A stretch of DNA of 64,000 bases from Rhodospirillales bacterium (GCA_014323865.1 JACONG010000004.1:27325-91324); one strand, 5' to 3'. Counted from the first letter of the stretch, positions 2,042-58,685 are shown. Notes: generated from the letters alone by a model not told the origin. Numbers and translations: made by a program.

Positions 2042-3148
2042 ATGGCGACTGAAGTGCGCGACGCTGTTCCTGAAAAGGAGAATGATGATCTTGACTTCAA
2101 AAAAGAAGAAGATGATGAGCTTCACGTCGAATATGACATAGCCAATTATCCATCCGACTACACACTCAGTGTCATTCATGAGATGTGGAAGAATGACGAT
2201 ATTGAAATACCTGAGTTTCAACGCAACTTTGTTTGGACAATTAAGCAGTCATCTCTACTAATCGAATCGTTCCTGAAGGGATTACCAGTCCCTCAGCTAT
2301 TCTTTTACATTGATGATCAGCATAAGAATCTCGTGATTGATGGTCAGCAGAGAGTAATGAGTATTGTCTATTTTCTGGAAGGGTATTTTGGTCCAGAGAA
2401 CCAGACGGGGAGAAGGCAGGTCTTCAGGCTAACAGGATTGGATGAAACAAGCCCTTATCATAGGAAAACGTTCGCTGATCTATCTGAATCTCTGCAGCGC
2501 AAGTTCAAATCTCGGGTTCTACGTGTCGTAAATATTCGTCAAATGAAACCGGAAGGTAAGAACACGAGTATGTTTCATATCTTCGAAAGACTAAACACTG
2601 GTGGCACTCCTCTTCGACCTCAGGAAATTCGTAACTGTGTTTTTTCTGGAGATATTGTTGATCGACTCAAGGAGCTCAATGAGGACAAGAATTGGAGAAA
2701 TGTTATCGGAAAGGCCAACATAGATAAACATCAACGAGATGTTGAGATGGTGTTGCGTGTTTTGGCGCTTGCTGATGGTCACATGAACTATCAAAAGCCA
2801 ATGAAAGAGTTTTTGAACAAGTATATGGATTCTAACAGAAATGGCACGAGTAAAGAGTTTCGGAAACTCCACAAAGATTTCTTGTGTGTTACAGAAATTC
2901 TTGATGAGCATGGCGGTAAACGTGTTTTCCATGTTCACGGCCCAATTAACCGAGCTGCCATGGACTGCATATTTGCTTCGATGTTAATTCATTTGGACAG
3001 AAGAGAGGATTGGAGTAAGCTGTCAAGTCAGATTGAACAGCTATACAAAAATGAAGAATTTCGATCTTGTATTTTCTCTAATACAAGTGACCCAAATATA
3101 GTAAAAAAACGAATGGAAATTGCCTTGGAGTGCATCGGGGCTGAATAA
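2042..3148 (+). CDS. DUF262 (ParB-like, GmrSD N-terminal-type) domain protein
   Basis: The ATG at 2042 sits at the onset of an AT-rich stretch, with GAGG upstream. Motifs FQRNFVW...LIESFLKGLPVPQLFFY...LVIDGQQRV: DGQQR is the hallmark of DUF262. No DUF1524/HNH half is present in this protein. Confidence 0.75.
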   Translation: MATEVRDAVPEKENDDLDFKKEEDDELHVEYDIANYPSDYTLSVIHEMWKNDDIEIPEFQRNFVWTIKQSSLLIESFLKGLPVPQLFFYIDDQHKNLVIDGQQRVMSIVYFLEGYFGPENQTGRRQVFRLTGLDETSPYHRKTFADLSESLQRKFKSRVLRVVNIRQMKPEGKNTSMFHIFERLNTGGTPLRPQEIRNCVFSGDIVDRLKELNEDKNWRNVIGKANIDKHQRDVEMVLRVLALADGHMNYQKPMKEFLNKYMDSNRNGTSKEFRKLHKDFLCVTEILDEHGGKRVFHVHGPINRAAMDCIFASMLIHLDRREDWSKLSSQIEQLYKNEEFRSCIFSNTSDPNIVKKRMEIALECIGAE

Positions 3149-10451: not shown

Positions 10452-10560
10452 CGCGGTCCGGTTCTGTCGCCGGCATTGCGCCGGCCGTCGAGATGGCTGA
10501 CCCTATGACCCGATTACAACCGATGTGACCCGGACAGGTGTCCGGGGGATGAGAGCGAAG

Positions 10561-11238
10561 ATGGCCTACGTCAGGCCGGCGCACAGAGCCGACGCCTTCA
10601 ACTGTCCCTACTGCGGTACTTATGCCGTGATGCACTGGCGCTACCACATTGGGACGGCCCGGGAGGATGGTTGTGAACAAGCTAAGGTGTTTTGGCTCCC
10701 GATCGAGGAGCCTGACTTCGACAATCTCCAGGATCTAGAGACCTCGACCTGCAATCGGTGCAAAGGAATCGCTGTCTGGCACAACGGCGAGATGGTCGAG
10801 CCGCTCGGCGTCTCTGCACCGCCCGCCCATAGGTCGTTGCCGGCTGATTGCCGGGATGACTATGCCGAGGCCCGAGCGATCCTTGAGCGATCGCCGAAGG
10901 GTGCCGCCGCGATGCTTCGTCTGGTGGTGCAGAAGCTCTGTGTGCATCTCGGCGAAGAAGGCAAGAACATCAATCACGACATCGGCGAGCTGGTGAAGAA
11001 GGGTCTGCCCGAAGAGATCCAGATGGCGCTCGATACGGTGCGGGTGGTCGGGAACGATTCCGTCCATCCCGGCCAGATCGATGTACGCGACACGCCGGAG
11101 GTGTGCGCCCGGCTTTTCGAGCTCGTGAACTTCATCGTGCAGCGCATGATACACGAGCCGGCCGAGATCGCGCGGATCTACGGCGCGCTGCCGCCCGACA
11201 AGCGCGCCGGCATCAAGGGCCGAGACGGCAAATCCTGA
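10561..11238 (+). CDS. DUF4145 domain protein (HEPN-like C-terminal domain with N-terminal Cys-rich/zinc-ribbon-like region)
   Basis: ORF 10525..11238 with a start at MAYVRP. CPYCGTY...CNRCKG cysteine pairs, then ...AAAMLRLVVQKLCVHLGEE...ALDTVRVVGNDSVHPGQ, typical of DUF4145. It is on the opposite strand to the prophage fragments and slightly lower in GC. Confidence 0.65.
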   Translation: MAYVRPAHRADAFNCPYCGTYAVMHWRYHIGTAREDGCEQAKVFWLPIEEPDFDNLQDLETSTCNRCKGIAVWHNGEMVEPLGVSAPPAHRSLPADCRDDYAEARAILERSPKGAAAMLRLVVQKLCVHLGEEGKNINHDIGELVKKGLPEEIQMALDTVRVVGNDSVHPGQIDVRDTPEVCARLFELVNFIVQRMIHEPAEIARIYGALPPDKRAGIKGRDGKS

Positions 11239-11386
11239 CCCCCGTCAAAATTGCCCCTAGAGGGCGATGAATACCTCCCCCGGCACCCATACAGCCCGCC
11301 CCTCCGAATCGTTTAAACCCCGTTTAACGCGCAATCCTGGGCGTGTTTGGGTACGCTCCGGTTGCTCCGCGGGCGGTCCGATGCCC

Positions 11387-11959
11387 TCATCTCACGCCGA
11401 GGGGCCGGTGTCCCCCTGTCAAGGACGTGAGGAGCAGGCCCGGCGGTCCGGCGTCGGGCCTTTCTTGCGAACGGCGCCAGGCCAGCGTGCCACGCCGGCG
11501 CTTCTCCAGCTCCCGGGACTTGTCCACCTCGAAGGCCGTCACGCCGCGCCAGCCGTCCGGCGCGACATCCATGACAACCGTGAGGCGGGCGTCCTGGCCG
11601 GGAACGGTCCAGTGCGCGACGTGGTGACGCCGAAGCGTCATCTCGCCGCTGCGTTCCTCCCAGACCCACCATATCTCGTCGGGCTGGCGGATCGTGTCGG
11701 CGATGACACGGATGAACTTCTGGCGTCCGCGCTTGTCGACCTTGTAGGGCCCGCCCGGGAAGAGGCGGAAGAAGGCGTCGGTGATCACGACCGGCTCGCC
11801 GATGACGTCCGTGAAGACGACGGGCTTTCCGGGCGCGGCACCGAACTCTTCCAGGAAGGCACCGACGTACTCGGCGTCGGACAGTCCCGAGGCGGGCATG
11901 ATCCGCGAGGCCGGCACCGGCGGCGGGCCCGATATCGGCGGCGGAGTCAGACCGTCCAT
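11387..11959 (-). pseudogene. MuF-like (phage head morphogenesis) N-terminal fragment
   Basis: 190-aa ORF. It is preceded, in the same frame, by RRIPKGIDPGFAYNVG, which continues from the portal-like frame after a frameshift. It is truncated at 11387. Confidence 0.35.
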
Positions 11960-12419
11960 GTGACGAAGACCGACGTTGTAGGCGAAGCCGGGATCGATGC
12001 CCTTCGGGATGCGCCGGACCTGGCCGGTGCGCCGGTTCTTCCATGCCCATCAACTCGCGGACCTGGCCTTGGCTCACCTTGAAGCCGATCGGAACCAGCT
12101 TCGCCAGAGAGTCGGAGACGCGGACGATGTCGATCGACTCCGCCCGGCTTATACGGATCTTCGGGTAGGCCTTCTGCGGACCACGGTTGAGGTCGATGAT
12201 CGGCCGGACCAGGTCGCGGTTGAGCGTGGCGCAGAGCTGCTTGCAGTCACTGCGCTCGATGTTGGCGCGGACGTCGTTGTGTACGTCGCCCAGAGCACGG
12301 GAGCCGGAGTCACCGACGTCGGTCGTCAGCGTTTGCCCCAGGACAGCCTTCGAGATCAGGCTGTCGATGTAGCCGATGAGCTTCTCGTAGATATCGGCAT
12401 TGGCGCCCGCGCGCCGAAC

Positions 12420-18746: not shown

Positions 18747-21500
18747 ATGACCGCGGACATACCTCAAGCCTCTTCCGCGGACAAAACGTCCGCCGAAACA
18801 AACAAGACCGACCTCCCTTCTGTCAGCCTCCAAATTGAAATGTCTAAGAGGGTGAACTTCGCCTCGGCACAAAATGATGTTCCTGTTCTCAAGAAGCTGT
18901 TGGTGACCAATAACACCGAAAGCGCGTTGGACAACATAAAAATTACCCTGACCGTGCAGCCAGAGATAATAAAGTCGAAAACCTGGATCATAGATGGATT
19001 GCTCTCGACGGGCAGTATTGAACTCGGTGATCTTTCAACGTCTCTGGACGTTCAAAAATTGAAGGGTCTCAATGAAACCGAAATCGGGCTTTTGACCCTG
19101 ACGGTCTCAACTGACGACGGGCCGCTGGCGTCTGAGACCCTGCGCCTGGAACTGCTGGCCCGCGATCAATGGGGCGGTCTGGATGACATGGACCGGTTAC
19201 TGGCGGCCTTTGTGTCTCCGAACGATCCGGTGGTAGCGGTAATCCTCAAGGAGGCTTCGCTGTTGCTGGAATGCAGCGGGTATGATGGCTCGCTTGAGGG
19301 GTATCAAAACGGTGACCCGCAACGCGCCTGGATGATCGCCGGCGCAATTTGGTCGGCCGTGACCGGTATGGGGCTGACCTATGCCAACCCGCCTGCATCC
19401 TTCGAGGTCGAGGGTCAGAAAATCCGCTCGCCCGAGCGTATTCGCCGCGAAGGGCTTGCCACTTGCCTGGACAGCTCTCTTCTGTTGGCGGCGGCATGGG
19501 AACAGGCCGGGTTGCATCCGGTTATCCTGTTCAGTCACCGCCACGCTTGGGCGGGAGTCTGGATCACCAAGCGGGATTTCGGGCATGTGACCGAGCCCGA
19601 CGTGGTCACCGTGCGCAAGGCAGCGCAGGCCAAAGAGTTCATTCCGGTCGAAACCACACTGTTGACCCAACGCCCAACCGCCGGCTTCGAACAGGCGGTT
19701 GAGGCCGGACGGGCCCGTCTGTCGGAGGACCGAGAACAAGAATTCCTGATGGCTATCGATATCACCCGTGCGCGCTCTGCCCGTATACGCCCGCTGGCCA
19801 GCCATGTGGAGGCTGAGGGCGTTGCGGTCGGGCATGTCGAGGCGACTCCGGCAAAACTACCGGACCCAATCGACTTTGGCCTGCTACCCTCGGAAGTGAT
19901 CGAGCAAGTGCCGGACACTCCCAAAGGGCGGATCGACCGCTGGCAAGCAAAGCTGCTGGACCTGTCGTTGCGCAACCGGCTGTTGAACTTCAAGCCAGGC
20001 AAACAGACAGTGCCCTGCCTGGTGCCCGATGTCGGTACATTGGAAGACGCTTTAGCGGCGGAAAAAGCGTTTCGCGCCTATCCGTTGACGGAGGACGATC
20101 CCTTTCGTGAGCGTCAGCTGTCGCTGGAGGAACGGAACGCGATCATAAGTCGTGTGACCCAGGATGCGTTCAACCGGGGCCAGATCACGGTGCCTCTGGA
20201 TCGCAAGGATACCAACAACCGCTTGCTGGCCCTTTTTCGCAAAGCAAAGAGCGATCTTCAGGAAGGCGGTACCAACACACTTTTTCTGGCGGCAGGGTTC
20301 CTGCGATGGCAACGAGAAGGCGACAAGCGCAGCTACCGCGCCCCGCTTTTACTGATCCCGATCCGGCTGGAACGCAAATCGGCGCGGTCGGATTTTCAAA
20401 TCCTGCATCACGAGGACGAAATTCGGTTCAACTTGACCCTGCTGGAACTTCTCAAGCGTGATTTTGATCTGAACCTGCCGGAGCTTGAGGGCGAATTGCC
20501 CCGCGACGACAGCGGCATCGACCTGCCACGCATCTTTGAACGGATGCGCGCGCAGGTGCGGGATGTGCCGGGGTTTGAAGTTGTGGAAGAGATCGCGATT
20601 TCGACCTTTTCCTTTTCGAAATACCTGATGTGGAAGGATTTGGTCGACCGGACCGATCAGCTGCGAAACAACCGGCTGGTGGCCCATCTGGTCGACAATC
20701 CGGACAAGACCTTCCCCGGCGCGGAAGTGGAGTGGATTCCGGTCGAAGAGATGGACCGCCGTCTTGCGCCCAGGGATTTGGTCACGCCTCTGCCCGCTGA
20801 CAGCTCGCAATTGTCAGCAGTCGTCGCCTCGGCAGAGGGGCGGGATTTCGTATTGATTGGCCCACCCGGCACCGGCAAAAGCCAGACGATTGCCAATATC
20901 ATCTGCCAGTGTCTTGCCCATGGCAAAACGGTGCTGTTCGTGGCCGAGAAAGCCGCGGCTCTGGACGTGGTCCAGCGCAGGCTTGAGGCGCATGGGTTGG
21001 GGGATGCGGTGCTGGAGTTGCATTCCAACAAGGCCGACCGCAAGCGGGTTCTGACCCAGCTTGGCAGGGGATGGGACAGGGCCTCGGCCACCAGCCAACA
21101 GAGCGAACGGGACTGGCTGGATATCACCGGGAAGCTGCGGATCAGGCGCGACCGGCTCAACGCCTATGTGGAGGCGCTTCATGCCAGGGGCGCGCAGGGG
21201 TTTTCGGTCTTTGACGCTATTTCATGGACGGCAGAAGAACCAAAGGGGCTGAGACTGTCCTTTGCGGACAAGGATGCCCATGACCGGCAGAGCTTTGATC
21301 GGTTGCTTGAAATTACGGAAGAGCTTGGCCGTACCCATGCTGCCGTTGGCGGTGATGCGCCACTGGCGTTGGTGGGAGAAGCCAAATGGTCTTATGCTTG
21401 GGAAGAGCAGTTCGTCGAACGGGCCGAGACGCTCAGGGCGTGTCTCGACCGCGCCATGCAGTCTGGCTCGGATCTTGCCGATCGGTTGGCGTTGACCTAG
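18747..21500 (+). CDS. N-terminal part of a giant DUF4011 / SF1 (Upf1-like, AAA_11) helicase protein; ends at an in-frame TAG
   Basis: 917-aa ORF. The DUF4011-like N-terminal region is followed by Walker A VLIGPPGTGKSQTIANII and ...VLFVAEKAAALDVVQRRL. GC is lower at the 5' end. The TAG at 21498-21500 is in the same frame as the next ORF. Confidence 0.7.
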   Translation: MTADIPQASSADKTSAETNKTDLPSVSLQIEMSKRVNFASAQNDVPVLKKLLVTNNTESALDNIKITLTVQPEIIKSKTWIIDGLLSTGSIELGDLSTSLDVQKLKGLNETEIGLLTLTVSTDDGPLASETLRLELLARDQWGGLDDMDRLLAAFVSPNDPVVAVILKEASLLLECSGYDGSLEGYQNGDPQRAWMIAGAIWSAVTGMGLTYANPPASFEVEGQKIRSPERIRREGLATCLDSSLLLAAAWEQAGLHPVILFSHRHAWAGVWITKRDFGHVTEPDVVTVRKAAQAKEFIPVETTLLTQRPTAGFEQAVEAGRARLSEDREQEFLMAIDITRARSARIRPLASHVEAEGVAVGHVEATPAKLPDPIDFGLLPSEVIEQVPDTPKGRIDRWQAKLLDLSLRNRLLNFKPGKQTVPCLVPDVGTLEDALAAEKAFRAYPLTEDDPFRERQLSLEERNAIISRVTQDAFNRGQITVPLDRKDTNNRLLALFRKAKSDLQEGGTNTLFLAAGFLRWQREGDKRSYRAPLLLIPIRLERKSARSDFQILHHEDEIRFNLTLLELLKRDFDLNLPELEGELPRDDSGIDLPRIFERMRAQVRDVPGFEVVEEIAISTFSFSKYLMWKDLVDRTDQLRNNRLVAHLVDNPDKTFPGAEVEWIPVEEMDRRLAPRDLVTPLPADSSQLSAVVASAEGRDFVLIGPPGTGKSQTIANIICQCLAHGKTVLFVAEKAAALDVVQRRLEAHGLGDAVLELHSNKADRKRVLTQLGRGWDRASATSQQSERDWLDITGKLRIRRDRLNAYVEALHARGAQGFSVFDAISWTAEEPKGLRLSFADKDAHDRQSFDRLLEITEELGRTHAAVGGDAPLALVGEAKWSYAWEEQFVERAETLRACLDRAMQSGSDLADRLALT

Positions 21501-21512
21501 GACCCGAGGCTG

Positions 21513-24038
21513 ATGCCCGAACGGCGCAGTATGTTGACCGAACTGTCCCGTCGCATCGCACAGGACGCGGAAGATTTGCGCATGGTGCCGCACTTGCCGG
21601 ATCGTGACATGAACGCCGAAGTGGACCGGTTCGAGACCGCGCTTGTGGCCTTTCAGGGTGCACAGGACCGGTGCCGCGCAACCTATGCCGAGGACGATCT
21701 GAAACGCCTGCCGCTGGATCAGTTGGATGCGGAATGGCGCGCGAGCGAGGCCGCGTTCTGGCCATTTTCGGCTTTGAAAAGGCGGAAAACTCGCAAGCTC
21801 CTTCAGACCTACGCCGAATCGGGGCAAGTCGAGCCGAGCACGGACCTGCCTGCGATAGAAGAGGCACGCAAACAGTTGACGGTACTGGAGAACAGTCCGG
21901 TTGCCGACGCAGCCGGCGTGGACCGGTCGCTGGACAAACTGAAGTTACGGGTCGCACAGGCGATATCCTTGCGCACCACGCTGGCCGGTTTGCAGTCTGA
22001 AACAGACGATACCGTGGCTTTTGGTGCCACCACTGTCGCTGCGTTGGAGGAAGGGCCAGATGGGGCGTTGCATCAGGCGCTGGAGGACTGGCAGGCGGCG
22101 GACAGCGAATTGAATGCGGCAATCACGGAGTTCATAGGGTCAGGCGGCTGCGTGGATACGGACATGTCCCTGGGCGATCTGCTGGCATCCGTGTCCCAGG
22201 CGCTGGCGCAGCGCGCGCGGCTTGCCGGCTGGACCCGCTGGGTTGCCATTCGGAACAAGGCCAAAGCCGCCGGGTTGACGCCTCTGGTCGCCGCGATCGA
22301 GGCGGATCAGTTGAAAGGCGATCCGGTCCTCGAATGCCGTCGTGCCTACGCCCGCTGGTGGTTGCCATTGGCAATGGATGCCTCCGAGCCGCTGCGCCGG
22401 TTCGCCCATTGGGAGCACGATCATATCGTAGCCGCCTTTCGCAGTCTGGATGACAAGGTTGCCGAACACGCCCCGCGCGAAGTGATGCGGCGTATTCATC
22501 ATCCCCTTCCAGCGCGGGATGCTGTGCCCAGAAAATCGGAATTGGGCGTCTTGCGTCATCAGCTGGGTTTGAAACGTCCGTCAATGGCCATACGACCGTT
22601 GCTGGAGAATTTGGGCGAAGCCCTGCCGAAACTGGCGTCTTGTTTTTTGATGTCGCCGTTGTCGATTGCGCAGTATCTTCCGGCCGGGCAGGCCACGTTC
22701 GACGTTGCGATCTTTGACGAGGCCTCGCAGATCACGACCTGGGACGCCATCGGTTCCATCGCGCGGGCGAAACAATCGATCATTGTCGGTGACCCCAAGC
22801 AGTTGCCACCGACCAATTTCTTCGGTCGCAGCGACGAGAGCGAGGATGAAGCCGAGGGCATGATCGCTGACATGCCTTCGATCCTGGATGAGGTGATGAC
22901 CGCCGGTATCCCCACGCGTAGGCTGAATTGGCACTACCGCAGCCGGGATGAGGCGCTGATCGCGTTCTCGAACCATTTCTATTATGGTGGCAAGCTTGTT
23001 ACCTTTCCCGCCCCTGGCACCGGCAGCAAGGCGGTACAGTTCCACAAGATCGATGGCACTTATGCACGCGGGCAAGGGCGCACCAACGCGGAGGAGGCCA
23101 AGGCGATTGTGGCGCAGATCCGCCAGCGTTTGACCGCATGGCTGGACCGGTCCGAGGAGGACCGACCGACGCTGGGCGTGATCACCTTCAACGTGCAGCA
23201 GAAAGACCTTATCCTTGACCTTCTGGACAAGGTGCGGCGCGACTCGCCCGAGCTTGAGTGGTTCTTTGCAGAAGAGCGTGAAGAACCCGTAATCGTGAAA
23301 AACCTGGAGAATATTCAGGGCGATGAGCGTGACGTGATGCTGTTTTCAATTACTTTCGCGCCAGACCTTGCAGGCAAATTGTCGATGAATTTCGGAGCGC
23401 TGAATGCGGATGGCGGCGAAAAGCGTCTGAATGTTGCGGTCACGAGGGCGCGCCGCGAGTTGCACGTGTTCGCCTCGCTGACTCACGATCAGATTGACCT
23501 GAAGCGCACCCGCGCGACCGGGGTGCGTGATCTGAAGACATTTCTGGACTATGCCGAGCGCGGCCCGGACGCTTTGGCTGCGCGCGATGAAGGATCGCTT
23601 GGACCGGCCGAAAGCCCGTTTGAGGAGGCTGTCGCCGAAGCTTTCCGCGCCAAAGGGTGGGAGGTGCGCACTCAGATCGGCGTCTCGGACTTCCGAATTG
23701 ACCTTGGGATTGTCAATCCCGATCGGGCAGGCGCCTATCTGGCCGGGATCGAATGTGACGGGGCCACTTATCACCGCTCTGCCACGGCGCGGGATCGTGA
23801 CAAGGTGCGGCAGGCAGTGCTGGAAGGTCTGGGTTGGACAATCCTGCGCATCTGGTCGACCGACTGGTTCCGCGCCCCGACTGCGGCGGCCGACCGGTTG
23901 CATCAAAGGTTGGTGGCGTTGCTGGAAAAAGACCGCGCGGTGCGTCAGGAAGCCCGGATCGAGGCCTCGGGAAAAGACCCTGGGGAGGAGGCACAGGCCC
24001 TGCCTGTGCCCGAACCGCCACAGCAGGCAGGACAGTGA
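21513..24038 (+). CDS. C-terminal part of the same helicase: AAA_12 helicase C-domain plus DUF3320 / restriction-endonuclease-like (PD-(D/E)xK, Vsr/DUF559-like) domain
   Basis: 841-aa ORF in the same frame as 18747..21500. Motifs FDVAIFDEASQ, IIVGDPKQLPPT, NWHYRSRDEALIAFSN, then C-terminal GWEVRTQIGVSDFRIDLGIVNP...IECDGATYHRSATARDRDKVRQAVLEGLGWTILRIWSTDW, typical of DUF3320. Confidence 0.7.
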   Translation: MPERRSMLTELSRRIAQDAEDLRMVPHLPDRDMNAEVDRFETALVAFQGAQDRCRATYAEDDLKRLPLDQLDAEWRASEAAFWPFSALKRRKTRKLLQTYAESGQVEPSTDLPAIEEARKQLTVLENSPVADAAGVDRSLDKLKLRVAQAISLRTTLAGLQSETDDTVAFGATTVAALEEGPDGALHQALEDWQAADSELNAAITEFIGSGGCVDTDMSLGDLLASVSQALAQRARLAGWTRWVAIRNKAKAAGLTPLVAAIEADQLKGDPVLECRRAYARWWLPLAMDASEPLRRFAHWEHDHIVAAFRSLDDKVAEHAPREVMRRIHHPLPARDAVPRKSELGVLRHQLGLKRPSMAIRPLLENLGEALPKLASCFLMSPLSIAQYLPAGQATFDVAIFDEASQITTWDAIGSIARAKQSIIVGDPKQLPPTNFFGRSDESEDEAEGMIADMPSILDEVMTAGIPTRRLNWHYRSRDEALIAFSNHFYYGGKLVTFPAPGTGSKAVQFHKIDGTYARGQGRTNAEEAKAIVAQIRQRLTAWLDRSEEDRPTLGVITFNVQQKDLILDLLDKVRRDSPELEWFFAEEREEPVIVKNLENIQGDERDVMLFSITFAPDLAGKLSMNFGALNADGGEKRLNVAVTRARRELHVFASLTHDQIDLKRTRATGVRDLKTFLDYAERGPDALAARDEGSLGPAESPFEEAVAEAFRAKGWEVRTQIGVSDFRIDLGIVNPDRAGAYLAGIECDGATYHRSATARDRDKVRQAVLEGLGWTILRIWSTDWFRAPTAAADRLHQRLVALLEKDRAVRQEARIEASGKDPGEEAQALPVPEPPQQAGQ

Positions 24039-36740: not shown

Positions 36741-37591
36741 TGCTGGCAACGGCGGAAACACCCCTGTTTGACGAGCTTGCACCATCCACTACCGTTCTGA
36801 ACGGAGACTGCCGCGAAGCCCTGAAAAGTGTCGCAGAGTCTTCTATTCAGTGTTGTGTCACGTCTCCCCCTTATTGGGGGTTGCGGGACTATGAACACGA
36901 GGCGCAAATCGGATCGGAAGATTCGCCGGTCGAGTATATTGAAAACCTTGTTGAGGTGTTTCAAGAAGTTCGGCGAGTGCTGCGGGATGACGGTCTGGTA
37001 TGGCTTAATCTCGGGGACGGATACGCTCGCAACGGCGGCACGGGTAAGCACGGCCCGAATGCCATAGTTGGCAACACGCGCAAGATGATCCAGCGCCGGA
37101 ATTGCAAGGTTCCGCCAGTCTGGGGCCTTAAGCCGCTCGACCTGATGGGCCTTCCCTGGCGGGTTGCTTTTGCGCTACAGGAAGACGGCTGGTTCTTGCG
37201 CTCGCATATTACATGGGTAAAGACTGCGCCTATGCCGGAGAGTGTTAAAAACCGGCCTACACGCTCGACCGAAGACATTTTTCTGCTGTCAGCTTCCCCC
37301 AAATATTTCTACAACTCGAATGGCGTCCGACAGGATTCCGGCGCTAACCTTCGGAACTGTTGGGTCATCGGCCCTGACGGCAATAGTGCGGGTCATCCGG
37401 CTGCGTTTCCGCGCGAACTTGCGCGGCGGTGCATATTGCTTGGTTCCCGAATCGGGGATACCGTTTTAGACCCTTTTGGAGGATGCGGAACAGCAGGGGT
37501 TGTCGCCAAAAGCTTAAGTCGCGATTCCGTTCTGGTGGAAATCTCGAAAAAGTGGAGCGACGTAATCGAGAGCCAGGTCAATGGCTCGTAA
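36737..37591 (+). CDS. DNA methyltransferase, beta-class amino-MTase (N4-cytosine or N6-adenine), SPPY motif
   Basis: Motif IV CCVTSPPYWGLRDY lies at the N-terminus and motif I VLDPFGGCGTAG at the C-terminus, the beta-class circular permutation. There is an ATGA overlap with the transposase stop. Confidence 0.8.
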   Translation: MMLATAETPLFDELAPSTTVLNGDCREALKSVAESSIQCCVTSPPYWGLRDYEHEAQIGSEDSPVEYIENLVEVFQEVRRVLRDDGLVWLNLGDGYARNGGTGKHGPNAIVGNTRKMIQRRNCKVPPVWGLKPLDLMGLPWRVAFALQEDGWFLRSHITWVKTAPMPESVKNRPTRSTEDIFLLSASPKYFYNSNGVRQDSGANLRNCWVIGPDGNSAGHPAAFPRELARRCILLGSRIGDTVLDPFGGCGTAGVVAKSLSRDSVLVEISKKWSDVIESQVNGS

Positions 37592-38144
37592 GGACGGCTC
37601 GAAGGCGCGCATCCTCAACTACTTTCTGGCCAATCCCGGAAAGGTTCTACAGTCGCAGGACATTCAGGAAGCAAGCGGCGGCGCGGTCGAATGGGCGCGG
37701 CGCTTGCGCGAATTGCGCTCGGCAGGCTGGCGCATTCTCACCACGAATGACCGAGCAGGCTTGAAGCCTGGCGAATACATCCTGGAAGACCCGACACCGC
37801 CGCCGCAATATCGCTTTGAGTGCCCTATATCTAAGCGGCTGCGTGCGGAGGTCTTTGAGCGAAACGGGATGACCTGCCAGATGTGTGGGATCGGTGCTGG
37901 CGATTTGACGGAAGACGGCCGCAAAGCCCGGTTGCATGTCGGCCATATCAAAGACCGCTCACACGGCGGCAGGGACGAATTGTCCAACCTTCGCGCTTTG
38001 TGCAGCGACTGCAATCAGGGGGCGAAGAACCTTGTCCAGGAGCCGCCTAGCTGGACTTGGCTGCTGGGCCAGTTGCGGCGAGCAACACAGGATGACCAGC
38101 GGGCGGCGCTCGACTGGCTCAAACGTAAATTCGGGGAGGACTGA
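37581..38144 (+). CDS. HNH endonuclease, putative restriction endonuclease partner of the MTase
   Basis: 187 aa. CQMCG...HVGHIKDRSHGG...SNLRALCSDCN is an HNH (His-Me finger) motif with zinc-binding cysteines. The N-terminus is winged-helix-like. It overlaps the MTase gene by 11 nt. Confidence 0.75.
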   Translation: MARKDGSKARILNYFLANPGKVLQSQDIQEASGGAVEWARRLRELRSAGWRILTTNDRAGLKPGEYILEDPTPPPQYRFECPISKRLRAEVFERNGMTCQMCGIGAGDLTEDGRKARLHVGHIKDRSHGGRDELSNLRALCSDCNQGAKNLVQEPPSWTWLLGQLRRATQDDQRAALDWLKRKFGED

Positions 38145-46810: not shown

Positions 46811-46891
46811 GCGCTGCAGAGAATATGGCTTGACACCCGCGCCTCGATTGGCCATACGCCCCAGTGTCAAAAACCCAGCGGGGGGTTAACC

Positions 46892-48967
46892 ATGAACAAG
46901 TTGTCAAGCGTTGTTGCAAGTGTGCTCCTGATTGCAGGTGTTTCCGCCTGGGCTCAGGAGAGTACGACCGATCCCGCACCGCGCGTTGAAATCCAGCACG
47001 GTGCAGATGGTCGGGCAGCTACTCGGGAAACCGGTCGGAATGTAACCATCACCTCGCCCGTATATCGTCAGCAAGTCACCAACTTCGGCAGGATCGATAC
47101 CGCCGTCGGTGCTGGCACTCTCGCAGCCCCGCAGGATCTCTCGGCCATGAGAGGCAGCATGACGGGATACGTGAGGATGAACTGGCACGCGGGCGGATTC
47201 GTCGCCGCCGATCGCGATATCATTGGCCATCTTCTGGTCGATGCCGATTTCAGTGCCGGTACGGTCACGACGTTTGCCGGCAATTTTCGTCAGTTCCGAC
47301 GTTCCGGCGATCAGCCTGTGATCGGTGGCTGGAATGACCGTGGCAGGATTTACGGCACCCTTTCGGGTGGCGGAACCATCTCCCGAACGACAATTGCAAG
47401 CAAGCTGCAAGGTATTCTCGATGACGGTGGAGACAGGAACGTCGTCGTCAATGTCGGCATGTCAGGTCAGGTTTACGACAACGACGGTGCAACCCTGGTG
47501 CACGGGGACGTTACGGGACAGTATGACTTAACCAAACGTAACCGCCGCACAGGGGATAGCCGTGGCCCTGGACGGTACATAGAAAACGTGAGCGGTGAGT
47601 TTTTCGCCACCGCGAAGAGAAACGGTCGCGGGCCCGGTCTGGCCCTCGTCGCCGACAGGGGACCTAGGGTAAAGGCAACCATCGACCTGAGCAGGGACAG
47701 GTATCTCAGGCAAATCGGTAACTTCGCTTTGATCGATGCCGCCGTCGAATCTGGCCGTCTTGAAGCCCCGAGGTCTCTCCCGGCCGGGAGGGGCATCCTG
47801 ACGGGTTATATGAGGACGGACTACTTTGCATCGTCGGAAGACGACATCTTGCCTGCCACCAGAAACTATCTCGTTGGCCGTCTCCTGGTGGGCGCCAATT
47901 TCGATGACGGTACGGTCAGGACATTTGCGGGCAATTTCCGCGAGTTTGTCGCCGGCAACCCCAGGGATCAACTGACCAGCCTGGACATTTCCCAAAGTGG
48001 TCTCGACACCAATTCTGACCACTGGCAGCAATACGTTTGGTCGGGCAGAGGTGAGGCGAAGAATGGCTGGAACGGTCGTGGCAGGATCTACGGGACCCTT
48101 TCCGGTGATGGAACCATCACTGCAACCGGGATTGCCAGCACCCTGGATGGCAAACTCAGTGACGGCAGAGTTGGTGACATAACCGTCGATGCCAACATGG
48201 CAGGCGGGGTTTACAGCAACGGCAACAAAATCCTGGTGCACGGAGATGTTACAGGAACCTACACGCCTGCGACCGAGAACAGCCTTAGAGGCAAAAAGAA
48301 GGCCTCAGGCAGAACAAACGTCAGGATCGCCAATGGAGCAGCGCCAGCACCTCTCACTCTCGGTGATGGCGACGGTGAGTTTTTCGCCATCCAGAATTAC
48401 GACGTACTGCGGATTCTGAACGGTCTCAAAATCCCGTCCGGTACAGGTTCGACAATCAGGCCGCTCGCACATATCCGGCAAATCGACAATATGGGTTTCA
48501 TCGATGCCGCTGTCGAGCATGGCCATCTTGAAGTCCCGGTTGCTCTCCCGGAGGGGGAAGGCACATTGACGGGATATGTCAAGGCTGACAATGCTTTCTC
48601 GGATCGCCGTGTCATTGGCAATCTCACGATCGATGCCGATTTCGGTGCAGGTACGGTCACGACATCTGCCCAGAATTTCCGCGACCCTCGCGGCGACGTG
48701 TCGGGAGGATTTCTTACGGGTACCGGAACGATCACGGCAACCGAGATCAACAGCGGCCTGAATGGTAAGATCTTCCTCGGGGCGTTGGGAGACCCCGACC
48801 GGAGGTCTACTACAGTCGACGGGACCATGGCAGGTAACGTGTACGATCACGCCGGGTCGTTGCTGGTACACGGAGACCTGACAGGAAACTTCAGGGAGGG
48901 CCCACGTCGCGGCCCTGATATCGAAGGCGGGGCGTTCTACGCTATCCAGAACGATCCCCAGAACTGA
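46892..48967 (+). CDS. Secreted protein with three tandem roughly 200-aa repeats resembling TbpB/fHbp-type 8-stranded lipoprotein beta-barrel domains
   Basis: Sec signal MNKLSSVVASVLLIAGVSAWAQ. Each repeat contains LTGY(V/M)..., IG(H/R/N)L(L/T)(V/I)DADF.AGTV(T/R)T(F/S)A.NFR, GRGRIYGTLSG.GTI, LVHGD(V/L)TG and a closing GEFFA / GEFFA / GAFYA block. The gene is visibly lower in GC than its flanks. Confidence 0.55.
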   Translation: MNKLSSVVASVLLIAGVSAWAQESTTDPAPRVEIQHGADGRAATRETGRNVTITSPVYRQQVTNFGRIDTAVGAGTLAAPQDLSAMRGSMTGYVRMNWHAGGFVAADRDIIGHLLVDADFSAGTVTTFAGNFRQFRRSGDQPVIGGWNDRGRIYGTLSGGGTISRTTIASKLQGILDDGGDRNVVVNVGMSGQVYDNDGATLVHGDVTGQYDLTKRNRRTGDSRGPGRYIENVSGEFFATAKRNGRGPGLALVADRGPRVKATIDLSRDRYLRQIGNFALIDAAVESGRLEAPRSLPAGRGILTGYMRTDYFASSEDDILPATRNYLVGRLLVGANFDDGTVRTFAGNFREFVAGNPRDQLTSLDISQSGLDTNSDHWQQYVWSGRGEAKNGWNGRGRIYGTLSGDGTITATGIASTLDGKLSDGRVGDITVDANMAGGVYSNGNKILVHGDVTGTYTPATENSLRGKKKASGRTNVRIANGAAPAPLTLGDGDGEFFAIQNYDVLRILNGLKIPSGTGSTIRPLAHIRQIDNMGFIDAAVEHGHLEVPVALPEGEGTLTGYVKADNAFSDRRVIGNLTIDADFGAGTVTTSAQNFRDPRGDVSGGFLTGTGTITATEINSGLNGKIFLGALGDPDRRSTTVDGTMAGNVYDHAGSLLVHGDLTGNFREGPRRGPDIEGGAFYAIQNDPQN

Positions 48968-48981
48968 AGTGCGTTAAGGAC

Positions 48982-49020
48982 GATTTCAGGCGGCATGGCC
49001 GCCTGAAATCCTCTGTGTCT
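48982..49020 (+). terminator. Rho-independent terminator candidate after the repeat-protein gene
   Basis: Perfect 13-bp stem gatttcaggcggc / gccgcctgaaatc with a 3-nt loop, then ctctgtgtct. A second perfect 13-bp hairpin lies at 49057-49094 (gcacccggctggaa / ttccagccgggtgc). Confidence 0.5.
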
Positions 49021-49042
49021 CCCGATTCTGTGTCTCCCGATG
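49013..49042. repeat. 15-bp tandem repeat tctgtgtctcccgat x2
   Basis: Read directly from the sequence. Confidence 0.9.
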
Positions 49043-49099
49043 CAGAGCGGATTGCCGCACCCGGCTGGAATCCCATCAGGTTCCAGCCGGGTGCAGTCC

Positions 49100-49147
49100 G
49101 TTCTGGCCCCCCGATGTTCTGGCCCCCCGATGTTCTGGCCCCCCAAT
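49100..49147. repeat. 16-bp tandem repeat gttctggccccccgat x3 (third copy has one mismatch)
   Basis: Read directly from the sequence. Confidence 0.9.
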
Positions 49148-49417
49148 GTCCTAGTCTGACAGGGATCGCAGAGGCAGGCCGCTGCTGCCCGCGCGCCGCG
49201 ACGCCCGATGAAAAGACGCCTGACGACAAGCCGCCCGTCAGGGAGCCGACTCCCTGTTCGCTTGTAACCGGTGACATGTCGCAATGCTGTGGGTGGTCAC
49301 AAACGTGACGTCTGGATCCAGGTGGATGCGCAGGCTTTTGACATTGTTCCCTCCCCGGAAGCAGCCCGGTCGCATCCGGCGACCGCTGGCATGGCACGCG
49401 AGGGCAGGGGAAGAGTC

Positions 49418-50485
49418 ATGACGAATTCGCTTGCATCGGGATGGACGCGCCGCGGGGCGCTGGCCCTGGCTGCCGGCAGCATGGCTGCGGGCCTGCCGTG
49501 GCCTGCCCGATCCCAGGACATGACCTTCTTCCGTATTGCCACGGGCGGAACCGCCGGCACCTACTATCCCGTCGGCGCGCTGATCGCGAATGTCATCTCC
49601 AACCCGCCGGGCTCGCGCGCTTGCGAGGACGGCGGCAGTTGCGGCGTACCGGGTCTGGTGGCCACCGCACAGTCGTCCGAGGGGTCGGTCGCCAACATCG
49701 AAGCGATCGTATCCGGTCAGGTCGAATCGGGCTTCTGCCAGTCCGATGTCGTGTTCTGGGTCTACAACGGCACCGGCATCTTCGAGGGTGCCGCACCGAA
49801 GCGGAACCTGCGACTGATCGGCAGTCTCTATCCCGAGGTTGTCCAGATCGTCGTGCGCCACGATTCCGGCATCCGGTCGATCCCGGATATGGCCGGCAGG
49901 CGTATCTCGCTCGGTGCCGAGGGCTCGGGAACGCTGGTCGACGCGCGCATCATCCTCGACTACTTCGGGCTCTCCGACAGCGATATCGGGGCGGAGTACG
50001 TCAAGCACGGTCCCTCGGTGACCATGCTGCGCGAGGGCGACCTCGACGGCTTCTTCGTGATCGCGGGTTATCCCACCAATTCGGTGTTCGATCTCGTCCA
50101 GGACGGGATCGCCGAGGTCCTGCCGATCCCGTCCGGGGACGCCCTGCAGATCCTGATCGGCCATCCGTTCTTTTCGCTCTCGGCGATTCCGGAGGGCACC
50201 TATCCCGGCCAGGGTCACGCTTCGACACTGGCGATCGGCGCGCAGTGGATCGTCTCGCCCGATGTGCCCGACGATCTGGTCTATGGCATCGCGGCCGCAC
50301 TGTGGCACGGGAACAGCCGGGCCCTGCTCGATTCCGGTCATCCCGCGGCCCGCCAGCTCAAGCTGGAAAATGCCCTGCTCGGCGCTTCGATCCCGCTCCA
50401 TCCCGGGGCGCGTGCGTACTACGAAGAGGCCGGCCTCGATCTTGCGGACGTGCCGCTGCCGGTCGAAGGCGACGACATCGCCTGA
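49418..50485 (+). CDS. TAXI-family TRAP transporter solute-binding protein
   Basis: Tat/Sec-like signal (TRRGALALAAGSMAAGL), then FRIATGGTAGTYYPVGALIANVI, a TAXI hallmark. No fused permease gene follows in this window. Confidence 0.7.
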   Translation: MTNSLASGWTRRGALALAAGSMAAGLPWPARSQDMTFFRIATGGTAGTYYPVGALIANVISNPPGSRACEDGGSCGVPGLVATAQSSEGSVANIEAIVSGQVESGFCQSDVVFWVYNGTGIFEGAAPKRNLRLIGSLYPEVVQIVVRHDSGIRSIPDMAGRRISLGAEGSGTLVDARIILDYFGLSDSDIGAEYVKHGPSVTMLREGDLDGFFVIAGYPTNSVFDLVQDGIAEVLPIPSGDALQILIGHPFFSLSAIPEGTYPGQGHASTLAIGAQWIVSPDVPDDLVYGIAAALWHGNSRALLDSGHPAARQLKLENALLGASIPLHPGARAYYEEAGLDLADVPLPVEGDDIA

Positions 50486-57400: not shown

Positions 57401-57810
57401 ATGCCAGCACTTCACGATTATCGGCTGTTCATAAGCCATGCTTGGACATATGGCGGAGCATATGACCGCATGATTTCCTTTCTTGATAATGCTAACAACT
57501 TCAAGTACAGCAACTACTCGGTACCCGTCAATAAGGCGTTCGAAGGAATGTCAAAACTCAGCTAGAGGAGCAGCTCAGACGTCAAATCAGGCCGGTTGAA
57601 GTCGTGATAATATTATCTGGCATGTATGTTTCTTACAGTGACTGGATTCAGTTTGAAATCGACTTTGCTGAATATCTCGGCAAACCGATCCTGGGCGTGC
57701 GGCCATGGAGTTCGTCAAGGATCCCCTCAGCGGTAACCCGTGCTGCGGATGAGATTGTGCGCTGGAACACCAGTTCTATCGTTGATGCTATAAGGAGGCT
57801 GGCGCGATGA
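57401..57810 (+). CDS. TIR-like (DUF1863/ThsB-type) domain protein, interrupted by a -1 frame change at an A4 tract (57553-57556)
   Basis: AGGAG lies 8 nt upstream of ATG 57401. Frame A gives MPALHDYRLFISHAWTYGGAYDRMISFLDNANNFKYSNYSVPVNKAFEGMSK..., then a stop. Frame B continues ...TQLEEQLRRQIRPVEVVIILSGMYVSYSDWIQFEIDFAEYLGKPILGVRPW.... Joined, this gives a roughly 135-aa TIR-like fold pattern (FISH...D, hydrophobic core strand VVIILS, S.W..E). The islet has about 43% GC. Confidence 0.55.
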
Positions 57811-58685
57811 CAAAGATCACATATCCAGCCATTTATGAAGCTGCCGATAAAGGGTCGAAGTCGGCACAATCTTGGTACTTAACTCTGGTAAGATTTGAGT
57901 ATTTGTTTCTGATTATCTTGGCCATACTTTCAATGGAGCTGTTTAACTCCGAATTGTATTATTTCGGCTTTGTTATGGTCCTGCTTACATCATTGGCAAT
58001 TTTGTTCTGGATGTGGTTTCGAAAGCCCGAACAAGCATGGTACCGCTGCCGAGCTCTTGCCGAATCAATAAAGACCATAAGCTGGCGATACATGATGCGG
58101 TCAGAGCCATTCGAGGATGCTCAGAGCGTTAGCGTGCCACGATCTGAACTGCGGAATATACTCAAAGGCTTGCTGTACAATAACGAGAACCTCGGAGAAC
58201 ATATTATTCAGCGAGACGATCAGCTCGATCAAGTTACCCATGAAATGGACACTGTACGAGAGTCTGAACTCGAAAGACGCAAGCACATATACTTGGAAGA
58301 GAGAATTAAAGAACAGCGCCTTTGGTATACAAAGAAAGCTTCCAGTAACAAAAAGTCATACAAATGCTGGATGTGTTTTTGTGTGTTGATTTACGTCGCT
58401 GCTTTCTTCCTAATCATCTTGCGCGCTATGTACTGGGATGAAAGCTGGCAAATCTGGCCGTTGGAGCCTCTTATTGTAATCGCATCTGCGATTGTCGGAT
58501 GGATTCAGATCAAGAAGTTCAACGAACTGACCGCAGCCTATACTTTGACTGCACACGAAATTGGATTCCTCCAAGCTGGAATAAGCGAAATTAACAATGA
58601 GAAAGAACTGTCAGATTTTGTGAATGAGGCTGAGCTCGCGTTCTCGAGAGAACATACCCAGTGGAAGGCCCGACAATCTAGCTAG
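57807..58685 (+). CDS. Membrane protein with two tandem SLATT (DUF4231-like, 2TM each) domains
   Basis: 292 aa. ATGA overlap with the TIR-like gene. TM pairs at about residues 28-70 and 205-250, each followed by an amphipathic W..YR..AE.IK....Y-type helix characteristic of SLATT domains. AT-rich codon usage. Confidence 0.55.
   Translation: MTKITYPAIYEAADKGSKSAQSWYLTLVRFEYLFLIILAILSMELFNSELYYFGFVMVLLTSLAILFWMWFRKPEQAWYRCRALAESIKTISWRYMMRSEPFEDAQSVSVPRSELRNILKGLLYNNENLGEHIIQRDDQLDQVTHEMDTVRESELERRKHIYLEERIKEQRLWYTKKASSNKKSYKCWMCFCVLIYVAAFFLIILRAMYWDESWQIWPLEPLIVIASAIVGWIQIKKFNELTAAYTLTAHEIGFLQAGISEINNEKELSDFVNEAELAFSREHTQWKARQSS

Follow-up and report, generated by a model that had tools for sequence, protein, structure and literature searches.

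The window analysed here is a 64,000-nucleotide stretch of DNA from an uncultured Rhodospirillales bacterium (GCA_014323865.1 JACONG010000004.1:27325-91324); positions are counted from its first letter unless another locus is named. On its plus strand, at 46892-48967, lies a gene for a 691-amino-acid (aa) protein with a Sec signal peptide and three tandem repeats, each of them predicted to form a helix followed by an eight-stranded barrel of the type known from TbpB, fHbp and NHBA. The parts of the gene are as follows, with the basis for each in brackets (AF2, AlphaFold2; pLDDT, predicted local distance difference test).

46892..48967, plus strand: coding sequence of the predicted triple-barrel protein of 691 aa, stop included (open reading frame starting with ATG)
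46892..46954, plus strand: Sec signal peptide of the signal peptidase I type, aa 1-21, reading MNKLSSVVASVLLIAGVSAWA up to the cleavage site and QE after it (sequence; comparison with the lipidated paralogue P0014)
46955..47041, plus strand: N-terminal linker, aa 22-50, predicted to be disordered (pLDDT <50 over residues 1-51)
47042..47617, plus strand: module 1, aa 51-242, predicted helix 55-74 and eight-stranded barrel 87-240 (self-comparison, AF2)
47669..48397, plus strand: module 2, aa 260-502, predicted helix 268-286 and eight-stranded barrel (self-comparison, AF2)
48449..48952, plus strand: module 3, aa 520-687, predicted helix and minimal eight-stranded barrel (AF2, Foldseek, grouping of barrels by position)

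Position 46892 is the earliest possible start after the upstream stop codon, and the N-terminus that it gives, MNKLSxVVASVLLIAGVSAWAQ, is kept in the paralogues P0002 and P0003; the 691-aa open reading frame (ORF) is therefore the real gene, and the call of the Joint Genome Institute (JGI) is truncated. That call (P0001; Ga0189853_1000014, locus L002, 10001-11821) comprises 606 aa and begins at Met86, so that window positions 46892-47146, with the signal peptide and half of module 1, are missing from it. The signal peptide has a basic, Lys-containing n-region and a hydrophobic core, followed by the sequence A-W-A with cleavage before Q; in the predicted model residues 4-16 form a helix. There is not a single Cys in the 691 residues, hence no lipobox, and lipidation is excluded. 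The position of the lipobox Cys of P0014 (MNKLLNVAAGMFLLAAVSAC) is occupied here by Trp20.

The three repeats (aa 51-242, 260-502 and 520-687) are 36-42% identical in pairwise comparison (E = 1e-29 to 1e-41). An AF2 model of repeat 3, built from an alignment (A3) of 18 single-repeat sequences, reached a pLDDT of 86.4 and a predicted template-modelling score (pTM) of 0.82, and shows an N-terminal helix and then exactly eight strands. The full-length model (pLDDT 68.9) places helices at 55-74, 268-286 and 524-542 with eight strands after each; the linkers between modules are disordered and hold no beta-sheet handle, every barrel being preceded by one helix and a short linker. The modules differ in detail. 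Module 1 is basic (isoelectric point, pI, 9.1) and is the most variable among the paralogues. In module 2 (pI 6.2) the beta3-beta4 loop is greatly enlarged by an insertion (approximately aa 354-395) that is partly helical and modelled with low confidence, and the beta7-beta8 loop (463-482) is basic and disordered. Module 3 is acidic (pI 4.9) and belongs to a C-terminal barrel class common to all paralogues (…DIEGGAFYAIQN); its barrel is the last domain of the protein and ends four residues ahead of the stop codon. The mean frequency of the top residue is 0.63 in strands versus 0.46 in loops. The largest insertions fall after repeat-3 residues 51, 82 and 152-155, that is, in the beta1-2, beta3-4 and beta7-8 loops, which cluster at one end of the barrel; the beta7-8 loops of modules 1 and 2 are rich in Arg and Lys.

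When both models were compared with the Protein Data Bank (PDB) using Foldseek, the best compact match was the C-domain of NHBA (6cuj, 5o1r, 2lfu; probability 1.00, template-modelling (TM) score TMt 0.45-0.66), and the HpuA barrel 5ee2 was also among the matches. The top matches of the full-length model (porins of 18-22 strands, TonB receptors, GFP-like sensors) have a TM-score of ~0.1 and are meaningless; matches to 25-phosphosteroid lyases (TM 0.19-0.34, root-mean-square deviation >8 Å) were dropped. The models support a fold in which each repeat is a soluble, antiparallel up-and-down barrel of eight strands, of the TbpB/fHbp/NHBA/HpuA type.

Profile comparisons point to the same superfamily. 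A search with A3 among 1.84 billion proteins returned 175 at E <= 1e-3, and three mutually independent lines connect the repeat to the Pfam family TbpB_B_D (PF01298). For the 184-aa lipoprotein P0037, the match to A3 has E = 7.8e-15 and the score with PF01298 exceeds the gathering cut-off (28.0 versus 26 bits). Two larger lipoproteins, the bilobed, TbpB-like P0112 (PF01298, 80 bits) and the five-barrel P0144 (117 bits), match A3 over the same residues as PF01298 (1.8e-5 and 1.6e-4, respectively), and alignment of A3 to their barrels with hhalign gave a probability of 94.3% and E = 9.5e-8 across strands 1-5. A scan of 85 relatives matched TbpB_B_D in 15, FHBP_C in five and HphA_C in four, mostly just below threshold; the Thioclava relative P0165 bears a UniRef label as containing a TbpB-barrel domain. 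The motifs of the query can be laid against those of PF01298: LPAGxGTLTGY against LPAGSATYAG, GNLTIDADFGAGTV against GNLRLTANFDGSTL, AGxVY..G..LVHGDVTG against LGEFYGP.AEEVGGVL, and GEFFAIQ against GVFAGKQ. At the level of sequence profiles, remote homology between the repeat and bona fide PF01298 members is thus statistically supported. Two further searches were set aside. Against PDB sequences the repeat profile returned WD40 matches only, which are spurious and due to the GWNGRGRIYGTLSG motif; a profile of the broad family was polluted by signal-peptide columns, and its matches to LbpB, NHBA and HpuA are individually non-significant (E = 0.07-0.4).

Much of this had been anticipated. An initial annotation of the window, made from sequence alone, described a 691-aa product with a Sec signal and no lipobox, three tandem repeats, and barrels of the TbpB/fHbp type, and all of these descriptions hold. 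It had assigned the fold from sequence motifs, and since the motif blocks correspond one to one the assignment was right; the blocks that it quoted are present, apart from GRGRIYG, which is missing from repeat 3. Its expectation of separate eight-stranded barrels from AlphaFold was borne out by three helix-plus-barrel modules, with Foldseek and hhalign placing the repeat beside NHBA, HpuA and TbpB_B_D.

All close relatives with several barrels come from one organism, represented by the metagenome-assembled genome "Rhodospirillales bacterium" GDA49 and by JGI sample 3300017829, which share identical proteins. The family comprises at least 21 gene calls in the two, some of which are adjacent fragments; this one uncultured Rhodospirillales bacterium carries at least a dozen fast-evolving copies, the gene among them. 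Nearly all relatives outside this organism are proteins of ~200 aa in which a lipobox Cys, somewhere around positions 17-24, is followed by a linker and a single helix-plus-barrel module, and those that carry a name are Rhodobacterales (Planktotalea, Thioclava, Paenirhodobacter). Within the organism an intermediate arrangement is seen in P0014 (GDA49_06785, 505 aa, encoded outside the window), which has two barrels, a Pro/Thr/Glu-rich linker and a homologous signal peptide with a lipobox: …AAVSAC, where the window protein has …AGVSAW and other paralogues have Q, H or N. The change from Cys to Trp (VSAC to VSAW) takes a single base.

Barrels group by their position in the protein and not by the protein to which they belong: first repeats (R1) are 48-57% identical to one another, second repeats (R2) 62-78%, and third repeats (R3) 50-68% to all C-terminal barrels. 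The triplication is therefore older than the split between paralogues, and C-terminal barrels form a class apart. That it might also be the best-conserved module was rejected, R2 being the most conserved. In the history that we propose, the ancestor would have been a small helix-plus-barrel lipoprotein of the kind common in marine Rhodobacterales; its module would have been triplicated ahead of the divergence of the paralogues, and the lipobox Cys would have been lost afterwards in the branch of the window gene.

Similarity among paralogous loci extends beyond the coding sequence. These loci were found by exact-protein look-up, and the set compared consists of the window, L001, L005 and L006 (P0002 was not on record). 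Scans for related loci and an exact 24-nt probe from the hairpin gave no match in the genome and metagenome contig collections, which evidently do not hold this organism. The conserved elements of the 5' leader and of the 3' untranslated region (UTR) are these.

46811..46891, plus strand: 5' leader (alignment of three paralogous leaders)
46830-46835, plus strand: TTGACA-like hexamer within the leader
46840-46853, plus strand: box CGCCTCGATTGGCC within the leader, kept among paralogous loci
46880-46885, plus strand: G-rich ribosome-binding site within the leader
48979..49013, plus strand: 3' UTR hairpin 1, with a perfect 13-bp core at 48982-49010 and a 3-nt loop (inverted-repeat scan, paralogue alignment)
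49012..49041, plus strand: 15-nt tandem duplication, TCTGTGTCTCCCGAT twice (repeat scan)
49043..49105, plus strand: 3' UTR hairpin 2, extended, with a perfect 14-bp upper stem at 49057-49094 and a lower stem at 49043-49051/49097-49105
49100..49149, plus strand: period-16 repeats of the GTTCTGGCC type, 3.1 copies here and 1-3 in paralogues (repeat scan)
49155..49194, plus strand: distal conserved box (CTGACAGGGATCGCAGAGGCAGGCCGCTGCTGCCCGCGC) of the 3' UTR cassette (paralogue alignment)

Similarity of the leader to those of paralogues starts approximately 60-75 nt ahead of the start codon; a generic promoter scan of the leader found no canonical sigma-70 site. After the stop codon the order of elements is hairpin 1, a TCTCCCGATGCAGAG box, the extended hairpin 2, the GTTCTGGCC repeats and a CAGGGATCGCA box. 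This 3' cassette of ~200 nt occupies 48968-49194 in the window, 10041-10215 in L001, 1046-1215 in L005 and 7432-7625 in L006. Identity is 0.78 across it and ~0.44 beyond, an abrupt end of similarity. Hairpin 1 (CAGGCGGC-ATG-GCCGCCTG) is invariant at the four loci; it has no clear U-tract and was not called by a scan for U-tract terminators, and is a candidate transcription terminator or mRNA-stabilising stem. The 15-nt unit that follows is single-copy in the other paralogues, so its duplication is specific to the window locus. Hairpin 2 shows two fully compensatory pairs, and in L005 and L006 there are single changes that yield G.U pairs when the sense strand, and not the antisense strand, is folded; the fold of the 3' UTR region has a z-score of -5.5. 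Both hairpins may have their effect in the sense-strand RNA, by terminating transcription or protecting the mRNA 3' end. Rfam holds no family for the 3' UTR (a mir-191 match of 22 bits, against a cut-off of 54, is due to chance). Neither the hairpin arms nor the 16-mer repeat occurs a second time in the 64-kb window, so they are not a dispersed element there of the repetitive extragenic palindromic kind.

Because leader, coding sequence and 3' UTR are shared, the family has spread within the genome as a cassette: the coding sequence is duplicated together with ~75 nt of leader and the ~200-nt structured 3' UTR. Just beyond it, between the cassette and a gene for a TAXI/NMT1-type binding protein (~49418-50485), a third, imperfect tandem repeat lies at 49200-49242 (period 15, 2.5 copies, 78% matches), overlapped on the minus strand by a terminator-like hairpin with a T-run (49242-49219).

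The gene has a GC-content of 0.55-0.60 compared to 0.65-0.70 in its neighbors, and at third codon positions (GC3) of 0.63 compared to 0.86-0.88. GC3 is also low in P0003, at an unrelated locus (0.57, surroundings 0.73-0.82); low GC3 is therefore a family trait and is no evidence of an island at the window locus. The initial annotation had correctly noted the lower GC-content, the two perfect hairpins and the two tandem-repeat blocks, but the horizontal acquisition that it read from them is not supported: the hairpins and repeats are elements of the 3' UTR cassette that four loci of the same organism share, low GC3 is family-wide, and tblastn searches of plasmid and phage collections found no relative or donor.

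The reading that we favor, with a probability of about 0.55, is that the gene encodes a Sec-exported, non-lipidated protein of the envelope or the secreted fraction, in which three modules, each with a divergent homologue of the TbpB_B_D barrel, serve as a multivalent binding scaffold. Such a scaffold is probably soluble and located in the envelope or outside the cell. The same barrel (TbpBBD) occurs in TbpB, LbpB, fHbp, NHBA, HpuA and HphA, which are cargo of the type 11 (Slam) secretion system, T11SS. Each barrel would be a rigid support and the variable beta1-2, beta3-4 and beta7-8 loops at its one end the binding face, making the protein a multivalent binder of an extracellular or envelope ligand; given the basic beta7-8 loops of modules 1 and 2, a polyanionic or host-derived ligand is possible.

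A number of observations weigh against this reading, and they bear in turn on the fold, on function and on export. As regards the fold, the whole protein has no match in Pfam, NCBIfam or PDB sequences: hmmscan of the 691-aa query at E <= 10 returned no TbpB_B_D, FHBP_C, HphA_C or haemophilin match, which leaves it below the gathering threshold of PF01298, and its sole direct domain match, a sub-threshold HTH_20, is due to chance. Homology therefore rests on profiles and predicted structure. The Foldseek E-values are marginal (~1e-3) and the TM-scores modest, and other eight-stranded barrels score alike, among them avidins, nitrophorins and the N-terminal domain of OprF (4rlc), which has the top TM-score in the list (0.51/0.60). 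The last of these raises the possibility that the barrels are not soluble but embedded in the outer membrane in the manner of OmpA, OmpX or OprF. We think this extremely unlikely. The match to 4rlc has E = 0.067, compared to 1e-3 for NHBA; profile homology is to the soluble TbpB_B_D and not to OmpA, there being no Pfam match to OmpA, OmpX or OmpW; and the C-terminus, …AIQNDPQN, has no terminal aromatic beta-signal. We know of no precedent for three tandem membrane barrels linked by soluble helices.

As regards function, comparison of the window gene with P0003 gave a rate of synonymous change (dS) of 0.49 and a ratio of nonsynonymous to synonymous change (dN/dS) of 0.67 (R1 0.72, R2 0.61, R3 0.54). 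The ratio is nearly equal in strands (0.65) and loops (0.72) and roughly uniform throughout, helices included; positive selection specific to loops is unsupported by this crude pairwise NG86 estimate, and a general relaxation of constraint is possible. A paralogue with all three barrels and the same signal peptide, at L006 5404-7431 (JGI Ga0189853_1000005), is full-length but interrupted by frameshifts at ~5742 and ~6000 and by one in-frame stop, and is called as two short genes, P0008 and P0031; either it is a pseudogene or the breaks stem from an error in assembly. The identity of the 3' UTR (0.78) is only modestly above that of third codon positions (0.70), and covariation in hairpin 2 comes from only four sequences; with conservation so near the neutral level, the structural argument rests on the covariation in these four.

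Seen in this light the gene could be an evolutionary leftover, one of many weakly constrained duplicates from a recent expansion in a decaying genome, still intact and of no specific function. The near-uniform dN/dS, the two frameshifts and stop in one full-length paralogue, the many family members that are short fragments and the atypical GC3 are all in keeping with this, yet on balance it seems improbable. The ORFs of P0002, P0003 and the window gene are intact over 680-730 codons, where neutral drift to a dS of ~0.5 should have put many stops and frameshifts into ~2 kb; the same three copies have kept their signal peptides, strand motifs, glycine turns and module order, and the leader, the ribosome-binding site and the stems of the 3' UTR are likewise retained. 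That three ORFs of ~700 codons stay open at this distance, with strands, glycine turns and signal peptides kept, implies selection against truncation. We conclude that the family is a functional one, either under weak constraint or undergoing diversification.

As regards export, no gene for a DUF560 (PF04575)/T11SS outer-membrane protein (OMP) or for a TonB-dependent receptor lies within ~10 kb of the four paralogous loci, and none is found among the Pfam-annotated calls at ~1-59 kb of the window; these findings give export past the periplasm no support. Nor do any of the data indicate a ligand. The protein might then be a periplasmic resident: exported by Sec, cleaved by signal peptidase I and retained as a soluble protein of several barrels, with a binding or chaperone-like role and no need of an outer-membrane translocon, the loss of the lipobox having taken it off the lipoprotein and surface pathway. 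The periplasm is the default destination for a plain Sec signal, and this protein has such a signal, no Cys, and no DUF560 OMP gene near any of the four loci. We regard this as a real possibility, if a doubtful one. High dN/dS and lineage-specific expansion fit exposed proteins better than housekeeping proteins of the periplasm; T11SS OMP genes of marine bacteria are seldom found beside their cargo, so their absence nearby is weak evidence; and homologous barrels of known function are surface-exposed or secreted, those of soluble Sec-type cargo included (PMC12282271). Judging from such soluble cargo, the C-terminal barrel, which forms a conserved class of its own, may direct passage of the protein through the outer membrane, and on the same analogy export past the periplasm is possible.

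The homology of the barrel to the TbpB_B_D, FHBP_C and HphA_C types, and the fact that soluble haemophilin-like proteins are the largest known class of T11SS cargo, could be taken to mean that the protein is a Slam/T11SS-dependent haemophore or captures iron or host proteins, in the manner of HphA, haemophilin or TbpB, and is induced on iron limitation. The initial annotation had proposed a haemophore or ligand-capture protein, to be checked by a search for a Slam-like (DUF560) translocator and for a Fur box upstream, and this proposal has not fared well. Boxes resembling those of Fur, Irr, RirA and Mur (consensus sequences Fur, Irr-ICE, RirA-IRO and Mur) score no better than in shuffled controls. 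There is no invariant His, Tyr-ligand or Cys apart from structural strand residues. Neither a DUF560 gene nor a gene for a TonB-dependent receptor nor any haem gene, haem oxygenase included, was found within ~10 kb of the four loci or over ~60 kb of the window. The model shows neither handle nor clamp, which is where haem and transferrin bind according to two reports (PMC12282271; bioRxiv 10.1101/2023.03.29.534853). A role of this kind is quite improbable, more so than that of the leftover considered above.

A broader version of the favored reading, in which the family represents a hitherto unrecognised class of handle-less, lipid-free, multi-barrel cargo that arose from TbpB-type lipoproteins and forms a rapidly diversifying repertoire of binding proteins, secreted or on the surface, in cassettes controlled by their 3' UTR, is offered tentatively, since we think it somewhat unlikely. 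On this account the bacterium is possibly host-associated, and the 3' UTR may control termination, mRNA stability or recombination between copies.

Among known systems the closest compact structure is the C-terminal barrel of NHBA (GNA2132) from Neisseria meningitidis, with which the repeats share the eight-stranded up-and-down barrel; NHBA is also among the weak sequence-profile matches (E = 0.1-0.3). Sequence identity is only 14-17%. Both proteins have Arg/Lys-rich segments, but here these lie in beta7-beta8 loops, whereas the basic segment of NHBA is located in its N-terminal region; and NHBA is a lipoprotein with one barrel after a long disordered region, unlike the three helix-preceded barrels without lipid anchor described here. 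TbpB_B_D (the barrels of TbpB and LbpB), FHBP_C (PF08794) and HphA_C (PF22829) are homologous barrels, although the query is below every Pfam reporting threshold. Relative to PF01298, the FYGP.A.E motif is replaced by VY(D/N)xGxxLVHGD, and relative to PF01298 proteins there is no handle domain and an N-terminal helix is part of every module. With the surface lipoproteins of the Slam/T11SS pathway (TbpB, LbpB, fHbp, HpuA) the protein has the C-terminal barrel in common but not the lipobox or the handle/pedestal; with haemophores of the haemophilin/HphA type it shares a Sec signal without lipobox as well as the C-terminal barrel, but not the haem-binding handle/clamp.

The nearest relatives outside the organism are helix-plus-barrel lipoproteins of ~200 aa from marine Rhodobacterales (E down to 1e-34 with the repeat profile), for example Planktotalea WP_348494264, Thioclava WP_152845176 and WP_078545374, and Paenirhodobacter WP_428337549. 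They match over the N-terminal helix as well as the barrel, at 25-44% identity to the repeats, and consist of one module with a lipobox, under the name "hypothetical protein". Multi-barrel proteins are known from elsewhere: the predicted multi-TbpBBD T11SS cargo termed Sphingomonas and Psychrobacter surface proteins consist of repeated handle-barrel pairs, have long disordered loops and are encoded beside cluster 1 T11SS OMP genes, and soluble Sec-type cargo has been described too (Grossman et al. 2025, PMC12282271). Like them, the present family has two or three barrels of the same superfamily per polypeptide and both lipidated and soluble forms, and the Pro/Thr/Glu-rich linker of the lipidated P0014 resembles the N-terminal linker of Sphingomonas-type cargo; unlike them, its unit is a helix and barrel without handle, no T11SS OMP gene is near, and it is restricted to a single lineage of Rhodospirillales. 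Three barrels in a row without handles had been called unusual: the handles are indeed absent, but multi-barrel cargo as such was already on record, in the form of handle-barrel pairs (PMC12282271). The protein is a new architectural variant within a known barrel superfamily and not a new kind of system; it is distinguished by its handle-less helix-plus-barrel unit, the lost lipid anchor, expansion in one Rhodospirillales lineage and the shared structured 3' UTR cassette.

The gene is neighbored by a pyridine-nucleotide oxidoreductase-like gene, the TAXI/NMT1-type binding protein gene and a peptide transporter of the ATP-binding cassette type. P0003 adjoins a helix-turn-helix/Peptidase_M78 regulator, several small ORFs and a Phage_tail_S fragment (L001 10223-12665), and may thus sit at the edge of a prophage remnant, a context unlike that of the window locus. 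Elsewhere in the window, JGI Pfam calls of defence type are dense (~10560-11960, 18747-24038, 37147-38144 and 57807-58685): DUF4145 with PBECR2, two large DUF4011/AAA_11/AAA_12 helicase-like genes with MTES_1575, an N6_N4 methyltransferase with HNH, a SLATT-domain protein, and GmrSD_N near 2042-3148. At ~444-1969 (L004 12946-14471) tiny calls carry pieces of large enzyme domains (CMAS, 97 aa; NAD_binding_2, 118 aa), and others lie just beyond the window (Oxidored_FMN, 126 aa; MTTB, 111 aa); these short calls suggest gene remnants and possible genome decay.

What is known of the TbpB-type barrel comes mostly from animal pathogens, from their vaccine antigens and the proteins of iron piracy, in which the barrel is combined with a handle domain and a lipid anchor and is served by a Slam/T11SS translocon. 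At this locus it appears to have been reused as a repeatable helix-plus-barrel module, triplicated, stripped of lipid anchor and handle, and amplified into a fast-evolving multigene family of an environmental alphaproteobacterium, a branch wholly missed by current Pfam and NCBIfam models. No surprising mechanism is demonstrated, and the family is above all a useful outlier for specialists in T11SS and surface lipoproteins. In its shared structured 3' UTR there is a concrete, testable example of a non-coding element moving along with the members of a family of bacterial paralogues. If the protein is exported, then the barrel alone would be the functional unit, binding by way of its loops, and the range of T11SS-type cargo would be wider than searches based on gene neighborhood can reach.

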